A stretch of 64,000 nt of DNA from a virus: the IMG/VR virus record IMGVR_UViG_3300011116_000416, positions 21,615-85,614 of that record. One strand, 5' to 3'. Positions 3,276 to 26,479 of the stretch are shown piece by piece; position 1 is the first letter of the stretch; every line of letters begins with the position of its first letter. The translations under genes and the position numbers were made by a program. The notes under the pieces were generated by a model, which saw only the letters and a list, made by a program, of their open reading frames with translations, ran no database searches and was not told the DNA's origin.

Positions 3276-3302
3276 AAAAAAGGACAGGCTTTGCACCTGT
3301 CC
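3276..3302 (-). terminator. intrinsic terminator
   Basis: GGACAGG-tgcaaag-CCTGTCC followed by T6. Confidence 0.8.
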
Positions 3303-4291: not shown

Positions 4292-4581
4292 CAGTATTCC
4301 TTATCTGTTGTTAGATATTGCCAGGTGTTAGCCCAGTCTTGCTTTGTCTTATGTTTATTAAATTCTCTGGATACTTTACCCTTATCAAGATAAATACCGC
4401 CCCAAACCCCATAAGCCTTTTGGGATACTCCAACTGCAAAACATATTCTAGCCATAGGACAAATTGAACAAAGAGAGTCAATCTCTTTTCTTACCTCGAC
4501 ATCTTCTTCATATTTTTCAAAGAATAGTTCGACATCTTCCCCAGCACAAATTGCTTCGTCTTTCCAATTCTCATTCGGCAT
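4291..4581 (-). CDS. whiB: WhiB family Fe-S transcription factor
   Basis: W...A.C, C..C.....C (4 Cys) and GVWGG turn. Confidence 0.93.
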   Translation of the reverse strand: MPNENWKDEAICAGEDVELFFEKYEEDVEVRKEIDSLCSICPMARICFAVGVSQKAYGVWGGIYLDKGKVSREFNKHKTKQDWANTWQYLTTDKEY

Positions 4582-5928: not shown

Positions 5929-6393
5929 TTACTTTGCTGAGTTTGCTAGAATGTGCTTTAGTGGGTCAACCAGGTCTTCGTATGGAGCCAAGTGAATGTT
6001 TGGATTGCTCCAAGCCTTATTAGCCTTACCAATAGACATGTGGAGGTGAGCCCCAGTACTGGCTGTACCGCTGGGAGTATTCTTTCCACCGCCCACAAGA
6101 CCAATGGTGTCTCCAAGCTTAACCTTAGCATCTTTCTTCAATGGTGACTGTTCTGCTAGGTGAGCATAAAGCACAAAGTATCCATCCTTTGCTGAGTGAA
6201 CCAGGAACCATCCTAGAACATCAGACCAAGCATTTACGAATACAGTTCCATCAGTGATTGCTGGAATTGGAGACTTCTCCTTTGGTGCCCAGTCCTGACC
6301 ACGGTGTGGTCTACCCTGACGATATGGTGCTAGATTTCCAAATTCATCTCCACGAGTTTTAGCAGGAAATGGCTCTTTGTAAATTACTGTCAT
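5929..6393 (-). CDS. M23 family peptidoglycan endopeptidase (candidate endolysin)
   Basis: HRGQD, YAHL and STGAHLH zinc motifs; SD before ATG at 6393. Confidence 0.88.
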   Translation of the reverse strand: MTVIYKEPFPAKTRGDEFGNLAPYRQGRPHRGQDWAPKEKSPIPAITDGTVFVNAWSDVLGWFLVHSAKDGYFVLYAHLAEQSPLKKDAKVKLGDTIGLVGGGKNTPSGTASTGAHLHMSIGKANKAWSNPNIHLAPYEDLVDPLKHILANSAK

Positions 6394-6459
6394 ATTTCTA
6401 CTTCCTTTCAAAAAGTATTCTATGAACTATTCATAGTAATATAATTATAACATTCTTAC

Positions 6460-6535
6460 TGGAGCTACCTGTGGGATTCGAACCCACCACCTATGCATTA
6501 CAAGTGCATTGCTCTACCGAATGAGCTAAGGTAGC
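6460..6535 (-). tRNA. tRNA-Thr(TGT), CCA encoded
   Basis: Cloverleaf; anticodon arm ATGCA-CTTGTAA-TGCAT; GTTCGAATC T-loop. Confidence 0.93.
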
Positions 6536-6539
6536 GTTG

Positions 6540-6613
6540 CGACTTCGATGGGACTTGAACCCACGACCTGTTGCCTGACAAACAACTGCTCTAACCAACT
6601 GAGCTACGAAGCC
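6540..6613 (-). tRNA. tRNA-Asp(GTC), no encoded CCA
   Basis: Acceptor GGCTTCG/CGAAGTC; anticodon loop TTGTCAG; G discriminator. Confidence 0.88.
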
Positions 6614-6614
6614 T

Positions 6615-6688
6615 TGGAGCGTGTAGGGAGAATCGAACTCCCACTACAACCTTGGCAAGGTTGGGCACTACCATTATGCAACACACGC
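6615..6688 (-). tRNA. tRNA-Gly(GCC), CCA encoded
   Basis: Anticodon arm CAACC-TTGCCAA-GGTTG; GTTCGATTC T-loop; TCCA end. Confidence 0.92.
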
Positions 6689-6692
6689 ATTG

Positions 6693-6764
6693 CTCCCCCT
6701 TCTGGACTCGAACCAGAAACCTTAGAGTTAACAGCTCTCTGCTCTGCCATTGAGCTAAAGGGGA
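6693..6764 (-). tRNA. tRNA-Asn(GTT), no encoded CCA
   Basis: 5' TCCCCTT acceptor; anticodon loop CTGTTAA; GTTCGAGTC T-loop. Confidence 0.9.
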
Positions 6765-7071: not shown

Positions 7072-7368
7072 TTATTTCTTAGATGTGCTAGATGTTTGTT
7101 CATCTTTAGCAACATCTTTAAGAGCAACTGTCTGGCGGAAAGCAGCATCAATCTCATTACGAGATAGTTTGCCATCTTCCAGGAATGCTAGGGATAGTAG
7201 TTCTACTACCTTGGCTACCGCCAAAATACCACCCATAACAGCACTGAACCAAACTGGGATATCAATTCCGCTTACACCGCTTGCAACGGTACCAGCACCA
7301 ACTACTCCAAGTGCCGATGCAACGAAAGTTGCAACGATACGCATAAGGACATTACCGAATGTTTTCAT
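7072..7368 (-). CDS. small two-helix membrane protein
   Basis: Two hydrophobic segments; DGKL...EI..AF tail; TAATG-coupled to the upstream gene. Confidence 0.7.
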   Translation of the reverse strand: MKTFGNVLMRIVATFVASALGVVGAGTVASGVSGIDIPVWFSAVMGGILAVAKVVELLSLAFLEDGKLSRNEIDAAFRQTVALKDVAKDEQTSSTSKK

Positions 7369-7547
7369 TAGTCTTCCTCCTTATCTTTAGGGTTTCTGAG
7401 TCTATAGGTCAAAGCCCACAATACAGTGCTACCAAGAATACAGTAGCCTACAACAGTTTTTGCTGAACCTTCAAGAACAATCCAGGCAACAAACATACCA
7501 AGAAGTGTCCATAGTTGGTTAATCATATCACTCAAAAAATCTTTCAT
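7368..7547 (-). CDS. small membrane protein (not in ORF track)
   Basis: Own translation: MKDFLSDMINQLWTLLGMFVAWIVLEGSAKTVVGYCILGSTVLWALTYRLRNPKDKEED; TAATG overlaps at both ends. Confidence 0.8.
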   Translation of the reverse strand: MKDFLSDMINQLWTLLGMFVAWIVLEGSAKTVVGYCILGSTVLWALTYRLRNPKDKEED

Positions 7548-7819
7548 TATGTTCTCCTTCTAGCAGAACCAGACGATGCCGAAGCACTTGCCGCAGCAGC
7601 TGCTTGTGTAGCCATAGCCGCTGCCTGTGTTGCAATCTGTGTAACGATAATTGCTGATACCACAACCTTTTGTGCTTTTTCACGAACTGCTGGTGGTAGG
7701 TCAGCACCGATATTATTCAGAGCATTTAATGCATCAGCAAGCCCTTCAAATACCGCCCCCACTAGTGGGATGTCTGCGACTGGGTTAGTCCCAAACTCCT
7801 TGGGGGGAATTATTTTGGG
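7547..7819 (-). CDS. -1 frame C-terminal extension (membrane anchor) of the PA14 protein
   Basis: Frame is open from upstream of the 7810 stop; no well-spaced SD or start; hydrophobic VVVSAIIVTQIA followed by an Ala-rich stretch and RRR. Confidence 0.6.
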   Translation of the reverse strand, partial: PKIIPPKEFGTNPVADIPLVGAVFEGLADALNALNNIGADLPPAVREKAQKVVVSAIIVTQIATQAAAMATQAAAAASASASSGSARRRT

Positions 7820-9261
7820 TCTGGTACAAATGTTGGTCTAGGAACATATGCTCCATCTGCCATCGGTCTATTCGTCACCTTCTTCGGCTTTCTTTTATCC
7901 TTTGCTGTTGGCTTAGGAATGTTTGCTAAATCTAATTTTGCTTGAGCCAATTGTGCCTCTAATTCATCTACACGATTAACGGCACTCTGAATACCAGCAA
8001 ATGTACTGGCATATTCTGCTTTTAGGTCTCTTAGATTTGCATCTTTAATAGCCTTATCATCACTTCTGAATTGCCATTCATTTTCTGCGTTATTCATTAT
8101 TGTCTCAAATTGTTCTAGTGTATTTCGTTTACTTGCAAGGTCTCCACTCAATGAAACATAAGTTAGCCATTTGCCATCATAAACATTTTCTGCAATGATG
8201 TATGTATTATATTTTTGTTCTTCTACAGCTACTGCAGCAACGAAAGCCGCTGTCTTCTGGTCTAGAACTACTTTCTTTGCAGGGTCTTTTACCCAAGTAG
8301 CAGCAGCATCTTGAGTAAAGAATGAAGTAGGAGCCACTGCCCATTGACCACCTTGTGGCTGATAGTTCAAAGTAGAACATGCACCGCCAGTCCACTCATA
8401 GAACCAAGCGTCAATAGTGTAAGATTTACCACCAGTAAAAGAGAATACACCAGTTGAGTTAGCCCCACAACCTTTCAACGACCAGTCATTAATAATTTGC
8501 TGACCATTAATTTTCATGTAAAAACCATCATCAGCAGGTGCCTGAAAATAAACTTTTGTTGTTGTTGGGTATGTAATGTATCCACGATAATTAAGCATAA
8601 TGTAGTCACCACCACAACCAAAAATACTTCCGCTACCCCAGTTAGCGTTAATGTTGCTTACCGTAACTGTTTTACACTTTGTATATACAACATCAGAACG
8701 ACTTGGTGGATTGCCATTTCTATTAATACCAACATAGATATCGACAACCAGTCCTGGCTGAGTACCCTGACCACCTTCATTAATAAGTTGTGTATCATAA
8801 TTGTTTTGAGCAATATTCATTTCTACTTCTGCATTATCTGCATTAGCCTGTGCAACAAGATAATCATTGTAAGTATTATCTACCACATCAGCGGCTGCAT
8901 TAACATCGACAATTGCTACAGATACTAATTGCTCTGCTTCCTGAACCTGTGCATACCAAGAGTCATAATCACCCTTTTTAGACAAATAATCTGATGAAGC
9001 AATGTCTAATGCTTCTTGTGCTTCTGTAGCCGCTGTCTGGGCTGAGTTAATCAATACCGCTTGGTCATTAGACGAATTTGTCCAGCTATCTAAATTTGCC
9101 TGAGCAGCATTAAGTTGATTTTGTAGGTCTGCAATCTTTGCTTGTGCATCTGCTACCTTGCGATTATAGTCATCTGTTGTGTCTGCATACGCTAAAGGTG
9201 TTGCAATCATAAACAAACAGGATAGGGCTAATCCTACTGTAAATTTAAAAATTTTTTTCAT
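7810..9261 (-). CDS. secreted coiled-coil protein with a PA14 domain
   Basis: Signal peptide ending LAYA-D; heptad regions flank a PA14-type core (NINANWG..YRGYI..ADDGFYMKING..WFYEWTGGA). Confidence 0.8.
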   Translation of the reverse strand: MKKIFKFTVGLALSCLFMIATPLAYADTTDDYNRKVADAQAKIADLQNQLNAAQANLDSWTNSSNDQAVLINSAQTAATEAQEALDIASSDYLSKKGDYDSWYAQVQEAEQLVSVAIVDVNAAADVVDNTYNDYLVAQANADNAEVEMNIAQNNYDTQLINEGGQGTQPGLVVDIYVGINRNGNPPSRSDVVYTKCKTVTVSNINANWGSGSIFGCGGDYIMLNYRGYITYPTTTKVYFQAPADDGFYMKINGQQIINDWSLKGCGANSTGVFSFTGGKSYTIDAWFYEWTGGACSTLNYQPQGGQWAVAPTSFFTQDAAATWVKDPAKKVVLDQKTAAFVAAVAVEEQKYNTYIIAENVYDGKWLTYVSLSGDLASKRNTLEQFETIMNNAENEWQFRSDDKAIKDANLRDLKAEYASTFAGIQSAVNRVDELEAQLAQAKLDLANIPKPTAKDKRKPKKVTNRPMADGAYVPRPTFVPDPK

Positions 9262-9306
9262 GGGGTTCTCCTAGTCAGAGGCATCTGACAAGACTATTAT
9301 ACCATT

Positions 9307-9471
9307 CTATTCGTAAGAAAGGTTATCGTTCTTTTTGCTTGGAGCCATTCGAGTTTGATTTTGATATCTATTTTGGCTCATTTTGTATTGACTGCGTAAC
9401 AGATTTCGTGGTCTTCGTAGATGCCAGTGCTGGCTTTTACGATGGTGAAATGGTGTCACGTTATTAGCCAT
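9307..9471 (-). CDS. small basic hypothetical protein (not in ORF track)
   Basis: 54 aa MANNVTPFHHRK...; GGAG SD and a TGATATAAT promoter upstream. Confidence 0.5.
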   Translation of the reverse strand: MANNVTPFHHRKSQHWHLRRPRNLLRSQYKMSQNRYQNQTRMAPSKKNDNLSYE

Positions 9472-25945: not shown

Positions 25946-26479
25946 TCATGGCAACAATGACCCCCAGTTTCCAAAAACTAGCTTCGTTTCTGGGGTTGCT
26001 ATTTGAAGCACAATTTGAGTATTTTTAGGAACACCAGTTGTAGGAACATTAATAGTAATAACCCCAGAGGTGGATGTTGTAGAGCCATAACCCTTGATAT
26101 CCTCTGCATAAATTGCCGCCATTGTTTTAATTGGTATAATTTTTGTAGAACGATTAGACTCGGTTATTTCCCTAATATTCGAAATATTGTCAGTTAGACC
26201 AAGCACTTGAATATTACTATTTATATTATTATTTAAAGCAAGACCAACAATATCTTTTGCACTTATTTCATCAAATAGTGCTTGGGTTATTTGGTCTACC
26301 GTGACTTCTGGCTCATTTTGAATAAATAAATTTGATGTAGCTATCTTAACATCATTTGTCTTTTTTATATCCTTTTTAGGAACTTCTGGTGTTGCCGCTG
26401 TAAGTTCCGCCCTTCTTGGACTTGAAAAACCTGATGCTGATGTCGCTGTTCTTTCTGCAATTCTTGCATTTACTGACAT
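25946..26479 (-). CDS. minor tail protein (hypothetical)
   Basis: Position in the tail block. Confidence 0.5.
   Translation of the reverse strand: MSVNARIAERTATSASGFSSPRRAELTAATPEVPKKDIKKTNDVKIATSNLFIQNEPEVTVDQITQALFDEISAKDIVGLALNNNINSNIQVLGLTDNISNIREITESNRSTKIIPIKTMAAIYAEDIKGYGSTTSTSGVITINVPTTGVPKNTQIVLQIATPETKLVFGNWGSLLP

Follow-up and report, generated by a model that had tools for sequence, protein, structure and literature searches.

The DNA analysed here, called the window throughout, is a stretch of 64,000 nucleotides (nt) from the virus record IMGVR_UViG_3300011116_000416, and this report is about one of its genes, which follows the terminase gene TerL and encodes an exported protein with a PA14 domain. 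The open reading frame (ORF) of this gene, 483 amino acids (aa) long, ends GAC CCA AAA TAA. As a first-pass annotation of the window had noted, the heptamer C_CCA_AAA (7819-7813) stands directly against the stop codon, and we confirm this in the sequence. The -1 frame is open from 7819 to its own stop at 7549-7547. The annotation proposed that a programmed -1 frameshift at this site appends a hydrophobic, basic-tailed C-terminus to the PA14 protein. This proposal is upheld by a conserved heptamer, by a coding signature in the extension, by relatives in which both parts are fused in one ORF, and by the lack of an indel at the site. We suggest that ribosomes very probably do change frame here, and that the gene would thereby encode an exported protein both without and with a membrane anchor. 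The features of the locus on which the argument depends are as follows.

7810..9261, minus strand: zero-frame ORF of 483 aa, ending GAC CCA AAA TAA
9184..9261, minus strand: N-terminal Sec-type signal peptide, aa 1-26, ending ...AYA before D
8392..8691, minus strand: PA14 carbohydrate-binding domain, aa 191-290, Pfam PF07691
7813..7819, minus strand: slippery heptamer C_CCA_AAA, in X_XXY_YYZ phase with the zero frame
7810..7812, minus strand: zero-frame stop TAA, directly 3' of the heptamer
7547..7819, minus strand: -1 extension, 90 codons and a stop
7610..7666, minus strand: predicted transmembrane helix, extension residues 52-70, VVVSAIIVTQIATQAAAMA
7550..7561, minus strand: basic C-terminal tail RRRT, with Arg codons AGA AGG AGA
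7756..7806, minus strand: candidate stimulatory hairpin, with outer stem CCCCCA (7806-7801) / UGGGGG (7761-7756) and inner pairings enclosed

The zero-frame ORF is laid out as a signal peptide, a coiled coil, the PA14 domain, a second coiled coil and an end rich in Lys and Pro, and would be the short, unanchored form of the protein. The signal-peptide and PA14 make-up described in the first-pass annotation is sound. The signal peptide has a basic n-region, a hydrophobic core with a Kyte-Doolittle 19-residue mean of 1.78, and an A-x-A site shared by the 18 homologues listed. The PA14 domain matches PF07691 at E 6.2e-7, with 29.8 bits against a cut-off of 24, and so belongs to the PA14 family. 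Its nearest solved relative, by family profile, is the PA14 module of RsgI3 (6qe7, E 3.7e-13), and coiled-coil families are matched weakly on both sides of the domain. Here and below, signal peptides and membrane helices were assigned by simple rules of layout and hydropathy.

Two other readings of the N-terminus were considered and rejected. The signal peptide is not a lipoprotein signal with a lipobox, because its Cys is not conserved: among the 19 N-termini listed it is present only in the window and in L029, and all of them have A-x-A instead. A unimolecular spanin, with an N-terminal lipoprotein signal and a C-terminal transmembrane segment, is rejected because there is no conserved lipobox Cys at the cleavage site, and also because the host, which we take to be actinobacterial on evidence given below, would be without a Gram-negative-type outer membrane; the match of the protein to a PHROG spanin family is weak (E 0.0053). 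Upstream of the gene, at 9266-9304 on the minus strand, there is an extended -10-like TGGTATAAT (9304-9296), which is absent from the list of the consensus promoter scan because no -35 fits it. Also in this region are a 6-bp hairpin, GTCAGA/TCTGAC (9289-9274), and then GGAG six bases before the ATG of the PA14 gene.

Relatives were collected in two scans of IMG/VR viral contigs, which gave 45 and 80 loci, and a hidden Markov model of the extension was run on the three forward frames of every locus to separate a frameshifted from a fused class. Homologues of the PA14 ORF are found at 40-81% identity in the 45 viral loci of the first scan. In all 47 distinct junctions, the window included, an in-frame X_XXY_YYZ heptamer stands 0-1 codon before the stop; L011, L023, L030, L031 and L037, where the contig ends before the stop, are excluded from this number. 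The stop follows the heptamer immediately in 39 junctions and comes one codon after CCCAAAA in 8, with L063 counted among the latter. The signals are distributed over the junctions in this way.

CCCAAAA at the stop: 22 of 47
TTTAAAA at the stop: 16 of 47
CCCAAAA one codon before the stop: 7 of 47
AAAAAAA at the stop: 1 of 47
CCCAAAAAAG (L063), which holds both C_CCA_AAA and A_AAA_AAG: 1 of 47

The first triplet of the heptamer changes only as a block (CCC, TTT or AAA), and a mixed first triplet is seen in none of the 47 junctions. These block changes alter the encoded residue in both frames, and the slippery pattern is retained. The AAAA of the heptamer is invariant in alignment A1, and, with L063 as the exception, the heptamer ends in A and not in G. 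In 19 of the 47 junctions the -1 frame opens exactly at the heptamer, with an overlap of 7 or 10 nt, and it never opens more than 82 nt before the stop. Because a -1 stop codon lies immediately 5' of the heptamer in these 19, a change of frame that meets no stop is possible in them only at the heptamer itself. Such a site is rare in the window: an in-frame X_XXY_YYZ heptamer lies 0-2 codons from the stop in two of 93 open frames of at least 100 codons, and a long -1 continuation is found only at the PA14 ORF (90 codons, versus 13 at the other candidate). The background rate of in-frame heptamers in the window is 0.45% per codon position. No upstream enhancer like a Shine-Dalgarno (SD) sequence is visible 5' of the heptamer in the window.

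A maximum-likelihood tree was made of 46 PA14 proteins, without L040, whose ORF runs into the end of its contig; on this tree just two changes of heptamer type suffice. The clade is deep: proteins of the divergent branch are about 46-58% identical to that of the window. We read this as purifying selection that would act on both the signal and the adjacent stop, since half of the residues differ, the flanking codons vary freely, and an insertion of one base could restore a fused ORF.

The extension reads PKIIPPKEFG...VVVSAIIVTQIA...ARRRT, and can be divided into a linker, a conserved module (..IPxxGA..GLADAxNAL.NIGADLPPAVR..), a hydrophobic helix, a Ser/Ala-rich stretch and RRRT. The first-pass annotation was right that the -1 frame runs open across the site to 7547 and supplies a hydrophobic helix with a basic tail. 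The helix has a Kyte-Doolittle 19-residue mean of 1.78 and is the sole segment of the extension that reaches the usual threshold of at least 1.6; alignment A5 retains its column pattern V-V-x-[ST]-A-[IV]-[IV]-V. Counted over all 47 sequences, the -1 frame has 10778/4969/28190 differences at codon positions 1/2/3 in the core and 5699/4423/8369 in the ~17 codons from the heptamer to the core. Gaps between the heptamer and the core are of 3, 6, 9 and 24 columns only (A1), all multiples of three. By this signature the extension is evolving as coding sequence, apparently under purifying selection.

It was also claimed that the -1 frame has no well-spaced SD or start of its own, and this agrees with what we see in the window and in the relatives, which have no conserved start. 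The only in-frame start candidate before the conserved core in the window is GTG at codon 19, without an SD-like motif upstream. In three of the 47 sequences neither ATG nor GTG nor TTG occurs ahead of the invariant GAD motif, and in several sequences the first candidate comes only at codons 22-34, inside the conserved block. A start candidate preceded by an SD-like 4-mer is present in just 8 of the 47 and in none of the remaining 39.

The fate of the module in other proteins points the same way. The 90-residue extension has 279 matches at E<=1e-3 among 1.84 billion representative proteins, and in most of these the matched part is the final 60-80 residues of a protein 130-1148 aa long. Three of them (P0006, P0007 and P0010) contain the signal peptide, coiled coil, PA14-like domain, second coiled coil, Pro-rich linker and module in one ORF. 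The first-pass annotation had contrasted a conserved heptamer and stop in homologues with a continuous ORF; both are found, with heptamer and stop kept in all 47 split junctions and fused ORFs in 26 other loci, where the module is the C-terminus of a continuous ORF of 514-1183 codons. Other module-bearing proteins carry fn3 or SUEL-lectin domains. The module itself has no match in Pfam (E<=0.1), NCBIfam (E<=1), PHROGs or PDB. It was not found in 185,579 prokaryote genomes searched with one pattern (47 pattern stretches, 0 confirmed), a search by which distant relatives could be missed, and the atlas clusters near P0006 are labelled viral. The module is apparently specific to phages.

The two classes meet in the same genomic position. 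In L101 and L116, TerS and TerL are 79-89% identical to those of the window (TerL 88-89%), and the slot after TerL holds a PA14 protein that is 30-36% identical and has the module fused in frame (L101:2396-4045, L116:2417-4030), followed by the same small membrane-protein genes. Since these fused genes occur at such high TerL identity, close relatives would carry either an always-anchored or a frameshifted allele in this slot. The post-TerL slot is, judged from these alleles, a hypervariable locus with two putative modes of expression. Two further observations concern the fused class. Many of its proteins (P0007, P0009, P0010, P0020; L104, L106, L122) share an MLRPxRGEGER-like N-terminal motif before a hydrophobic segment. 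The fused homologue in L113 has an in-frame TAG at 3276-3278, where its relatives have a Tyr codon (YIP*IEPEP versus YIPYIEPEP), and its module is open and conserved downstream; this could be a nonsense variant, an error or read-through, and L113 was counted in neither class.

Downstream of the heptamer there is a potential for RNA structure. The first-pass annotation listed several self-complementary pairings here, of which CCCCCA/UGGGGG is kept in relatives; the stretch is real, but the other listed pairings are local to the window sequence. The outer stem CCCCCA/UGGGGG begins 6 nt after the heptamer in the window. Of 36 sequences, 30 have CCCCCA(A)/(U)UGGGGG as the best simple helix with its 5' arm just 3' of the heptamer; the spacer is 5-6 nt, and the 3' arm lies on Leu/Val-Gly-Ala codons. 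When the 78 nt that follow the heptamer are folded by minimum free energy, almost every one of the 47 sequences forms a long, irregular hairpin that starts after a spacer of 5-7 nt. In divergent lineages this hairpin is formed by other sequences, namely CCCAGC/GCUGGG in L034, CCGAA/UUCGG in L032 and CCCAACAGA/UCUGUUGGG in L061, and a helix of -35 kcal/mol is found in L090 and L091. The mean z-score of the hairpin is -2.2 against mononucleotide shuffles, and its segment typically ranks in the most stable tenth of the 70-nt segments of its own gene.

For 9 divergent sequences, RNAalifold places a 9-bp stem at the same position, in which 90.1% of cells are paired, compared with 35-48% when the partner is slid. 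Its covariation is 0.179, versus 0.076+-0.024 in shuffles, a value that 2 of 500 shuffles reached, and one of its pairs joins the third positions of two Pro codons as A-U in 5, U-A in 2 and C-G in 1. This covariation is supportive and not decisive, because the structure was derived from the same sequences. Our confidence that a stimulatory hairpin would form downstream of the heptamer is moderate. The hairpin was also considered as a transcription terminator, and this was rejected since the scan gave no minus-strand terminator-like site at the junction. On the plus strand, a terminator-like site at 7789-7805 is the complement of the hairpin (a stem, then GGAATTATTT) and is probably incidental.

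From these observations we propose the following course of events. By default, ribosomes would end at the TAA after C_CCA_AAA and give the 483-aa precursor, which would be without an anchor once its signal peptide is cleaved. A fraction of the ribosomes would slip back by one base at the heptamer, so that the P-site CCA re-pairs to CCC and the A-site AAA to AAA, probably with the assistance of the hairpin 5-7 nt downstream, and the shifted ribosomes would read 88 more codons. The module, with its N-x-G-A-D-x-x-P-x-x-R motif, its helix, its Ser/Ala stretch and its Arg/Lys end, would fix the protein to the cytoplasmic membrane so that the PA14 part faces outward and the basic tail the interior of the cell. 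In this way a single lectin-like surface protein would be made in two forms at a set ratio, and its gene is neighboured by those of an M23 peptidase and two small membrane proteins. The fixed ratio of released and anchored subunits named in the first-pass annotation may be what such a site provides.

We hold it highly likely that there is a programmed -1 ribosomal frameshift at the heptamer, judged from conservation and coding pattern. The full statement, in which -1 slippage yields an unanchored exported PA14 form and a minority membrane-anchored form, seems to us likely, with somewhat less assurance; our confidence in the localisation of the two forms is lower than in the frameshift as such, and this is already taken into account in that judgement. 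Measurable -1 shifting has been recorded at C_CC.A_AA.A in E. coli (PMC4066793, in the excerpt available), so that a modest efficiency is plausible, though the host here is not E. coli.

Several points weigh against our proposal. Since the type of heptamer changed only about twice on the tree, the finding of a heptamer in all 47 junctions is largely due to shared descent. The hairpin is the single most stable segment of its gene in just 2 of the 47 loci, and the window's own 106-nt fold has a z-score of -1.27. No covariation is found in the 36-sequence covariance-model alignment R1 (83.3% paired versus 82.9% in shuffles; score 0.060 versus 0.069), in which the close group is nearly invariant and the divergent sequences are one column out of register. 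The predicted topology was derived solely from hydropathy and the positive-inside rule. Many loci have a GTG or TTG at codons 17-20 of the -1 frame, and actinobacteria tolerate initiation without an SD. In addition, X_XXA_AAA is weaker than X_XXA_AAG in E. coli, where the latter is the strongest (PMC4066793, same excerpt).

The GTG and TTG codons, and the tolerance of SD-less initiation, would suit an arrangement of two genes, in which the PA14 gene ends at TAA, an independent membrane protein of ~70 aa starts at an internal GTG/TTG or a non-canonical codon, and the heptamer is kept for other reasons. Stand-alone proteins of 69-87 aa from the -1 frame are indeed present in the output of gene callers (P0002, P0003, P0004, P0008 and P0014). 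We nevertheless regard this as quite improbable. Three of 47 sequences have no start before GAD, others have their first one at codons 22-34, and 39 have no SD-preceded candidate; moreover, the residues upstream of codon 19 are conserved, and the gaps there are multiples of three. In the fused relatives the module is always C-terminal and never has a natural N-terminal start, and the block changes among CCC, TTT and AAA would be left unexplained. An error of assembly or sequencing, or a decaying pseudogene, is hardly credible. Homopolymer-adjacent sites are error-prone on some platforms, but the arrangement is common to 47 distinct junctions from many metagenomes. The first-pass annotation had raised the possibility of an indel over the site, and in Logan contigs from four runs of four studies there are 0 indels and 0 SNPs (single-nucleotide differences) at 7810-7819. 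The contigs of these four independent runs cover at least 7736-7924 and differ from the window at other nearby places, which is a result at the level of contigs and not of reads. A pseudogene is further contradicted by the purifying selection that appears to act on the extension.

Slippage of the RNA polymerase, which would add or drop an A in the A-run so that edited mRNAs encode the long form, is very unlikely. There is an A-run at the site, with seven A in L032 and six in L063, but just four consecutive A are found in 45 of the 47 junctions, and runs of about 7-9 are reportedly needed as a rule. An A-run alone would also not demand the XXX homotriplet in phase with the zero frame. It is also conceivable that the frameshift is corrective, that is, an ancestral indel split a fused gene, efficient slippage restores the anchored protein, and the short form is a by-product without a role and without a regulated ratio. 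This fits the fused alleles in the same slot of the close relatives L101 and L116, and the anchored full-length protein is evidently ancestral or common, given the 26 fused loci. Yet the split persists in a deep clade of 47 junctions, with the stop 0-1 codon from the heptamer and no reversion within the clade. Because a single-base insertion would suffice for reversion and none is seen, this suggests that the short form is selected. Further, X_XXA_AAA is not among the most efficient heptamers in E. coli (PMC4066793, as excerpted), and we consider a purely corrective role unlikely.

The programmed frameshift that we favour is embedded in a conserved cluster, whose order is TerS, TerL, the PA14 gene with its module, membrane proteins of 59 and 98 aa, a small ORF, tRNAs (in the phage of the window) and an M23 peptidase. 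The members downstream of the extension, together with two other elements of the window mentioned below, are these.

7368..7547, minus strand: tm59, a 59-aa membrane protein, whose ATG shares A7547 with the stop of the extension
7072..7368, minus strand: tm98, a 98-aa membrane protein, the second small hydrophobic gene of the cluster, found in 81 loci
6460-6764, minus strand: run of four tRNA genes, Thr-TGT, Asp-GTC, Gly-GCC and Asn-GTT, lying after the small membrane-protein genes and before the M23 gene
5929..6411, minus strand: Peptidase_M23 protein at the end of the cluster, found in 70 loci (Pfam E 7.9e-18; PHROG endolysin families)
4393-4566, minus strand: WhiB-family gene (26007-26180 of the virus record), 44.6 bits, above the cut-off

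The M23 protein is likely an endolysin. The tm98 protein matches PHROG 26427 (E 4.7e-20), which is labelled 'nuclease'; this label does not fit a hydrophobic protein of 98 aa and looks like a mislabel. In tblastn searches, tm59 is found in 100 of the 122 loci with any match, and it comes after the module in all 21 loci printed, in both classes. The first-pass annotation took the overlap of the extension stop with the next ATG (TAATG) to imply that the extension is translated. The overlap is real, but it is no proof of this by itself, because tm59 has its own SD in the Arg codons of the tail (AAGGAG, 7559-7554, 6 nt before the ATG). An SD-like motif lies within the Arg/Lys tail codons in 42 of 46 related loci. 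Translation of tm59 may be coupled to the shifted ribosomes, though it need not be. Since its start overlaps the stop of the extension, shifted ribosomes could feed its translation, and its amount could thereby be tied to that of the anchored form.

Terminases of phages of Streptomyces share 52-54% identity with the TerL of the window, and Streptomyces or Gordonia phages make up most of the 365 records that match it. Taken together with the WhiB gene, this identifies the host as an actinobacterium. The relatives come from freshwater, river, wastewater, sediment and soil metagenomes. A blastn search with 7300-9400 gave no match in 50,697 phage records, so a cultured relative with the locus was not found among them, and tblastn with the PA14 protein against the phage records gave only a partial match of 19% in Pelagibacter phage HTVC008M. 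The PADLOC models of defence systems found nothing meaningful.

The role of the two forms could be related to the envelope or to lysis, or could lie in exclusion or the masking of receptors. A part in lysis would also agree with the position of the gene next to an endolysin-like peptidase and holin-like genes. Tentatively, and with more doubt than belief, we put forward that the frameshift is the stoichiometry device of an undescribed phage envelope system. In such a system the anchor module, which is carried by PA14, fn3 and SUEL-lectin ectodomains and always followed by tm59, would tether a lectin-like stalk to the membrane of the infected cell, and the unanchored form would be released into the wall or the medium. 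The pair might then mask or bind wall glycans, for superinfection exclusion or so that progeny are shielded from debris, or it might take part in lysis along with the M23 peptidase and the holin-like proteins. Whether two forms are of benefit is directly testable, because close relatives carry the fused, always-anchored allele in the same slot and thus provide a natural control. Whatever the role, the C-terminal anchor module is uncatalogued, and it is widespread in uncultured freshwater actinophages. Gene callers split or truncate genes of this kind, as the 69-87-aa 'proteins' in public collections show.

Proteins of the LPXTG/sortase type and of the PrgA/Sec10 type have a signal peptide, a coiled-coil stalk with a globular domain, a C-terminal hydrophobic segment and a basic tail. 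The anchored PA14 form resembles LPXTG proteins and the PrgA/Sec10 surface-exclusion proteins in overall architecture, a likeness that serves as a lead only. A sortase-type signal was rejected, as there is no LPXTG-like motif before the helix in A5 and no curated sorting-domain model was matched. PrgA/Sec10 (TIGR04320) was likewise rejected: the homologues P0006 and P0020 reach 15.8 and 15.9 bits where the cut-off is 70, and the window's own protein was not matched.

In phage lambda, the G/GT genes have a slippery heptamer near the 3' end of the upstream ORF, which yields a short major product and a minor product extended at its C-terminus. The PA14 locus is like G/GT in the position of the heptamer, in the predicted short and extended products, and in an arrangement that is more conserved than the sequence. 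It is unlike G/GT in that the PA14 gene lies between TerL and the genes for small membrane proteins and M23, in that its product has a signal peptide and a PA14 domain, and in that the extension would be an anchor and not a part that binds the tape measure. The gene does not belong to the tail chaperones: there is no match to a chaperone family in Pfam or PHROGs, and its neighbours are TerL, small membrane proteins and M23. Thus the first-pass annotation was correct to place the site outside the tail genes, as the neighbours are not a tail module, but this is not new in itself. The available part of the PRFect paper (PMC10885494), which discusses the class of tail assembly chaperone frameshift genes, also lists phage frameshifts in lysins, methyltransferases, polymerases and capsids, and its reference 41 concerns the frameshift of the major head protein of Lactobacillus phage A2. 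As far as that part goes, the PA14 site is like the capsid and other non-tail cases, such as the A2 head, in the proposed use of -1 recoding to make C-terminally extended variants, and is unlike them in that it would switch between an unanchored exported form and a membrane-anchored form. A description of a phage frameshift that adds a membrane anchor, or of this PA14 family in actinophages, was not found in the full-text literature, a body that leaves subscription-only papers outside its scope.

In its anatomy the site is like those of E. coli dnaX and of IS3/IS911, according to the excerpt of PMC4066793, with a heptamer of the X_XXA_AAN motif class; in those systems a stem-loop or pseudoknot follows at a short spacer, and the PA14 site has a candidate hairpin there. 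In E. coli they have A_AAA_AAG-type motifs, often with an upstream SD-like enhancer (PMC4066793, in excerpt). At the PA14 site no such upstream element is visible in the window, and the heptamer ends in A, L063 aside. Most of the frameshifting known from phages is that of tail chaperones, with a few structural or enzyme genes besides. A conserved frameshift in an exported sugar-binding envelope protein, in which recoding would decide whether there is an anchor, looks like an unusual use of a known trick. The outcome of being anchored or not is otherwise known from animal viruses, such as in Ebola GP, and from eukaryotic alternative RNA processing. In Ebola GP, the default product is the soluble sGP, and transcriptional slippage at a short homopolymer gives the transmembrane GP in a set proportion (PMC5009743, in the part available). 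On that account Ebola GP is the closest parallel in outcome, since a soluble and a transmembrane protein come from one gene. It differs in that its slippage is that of the viral polymerase of an animal RNA virus, whereas the PA14 site has the anatomy of a ribosomal -1 frameshift and belongs to a DNA phage.

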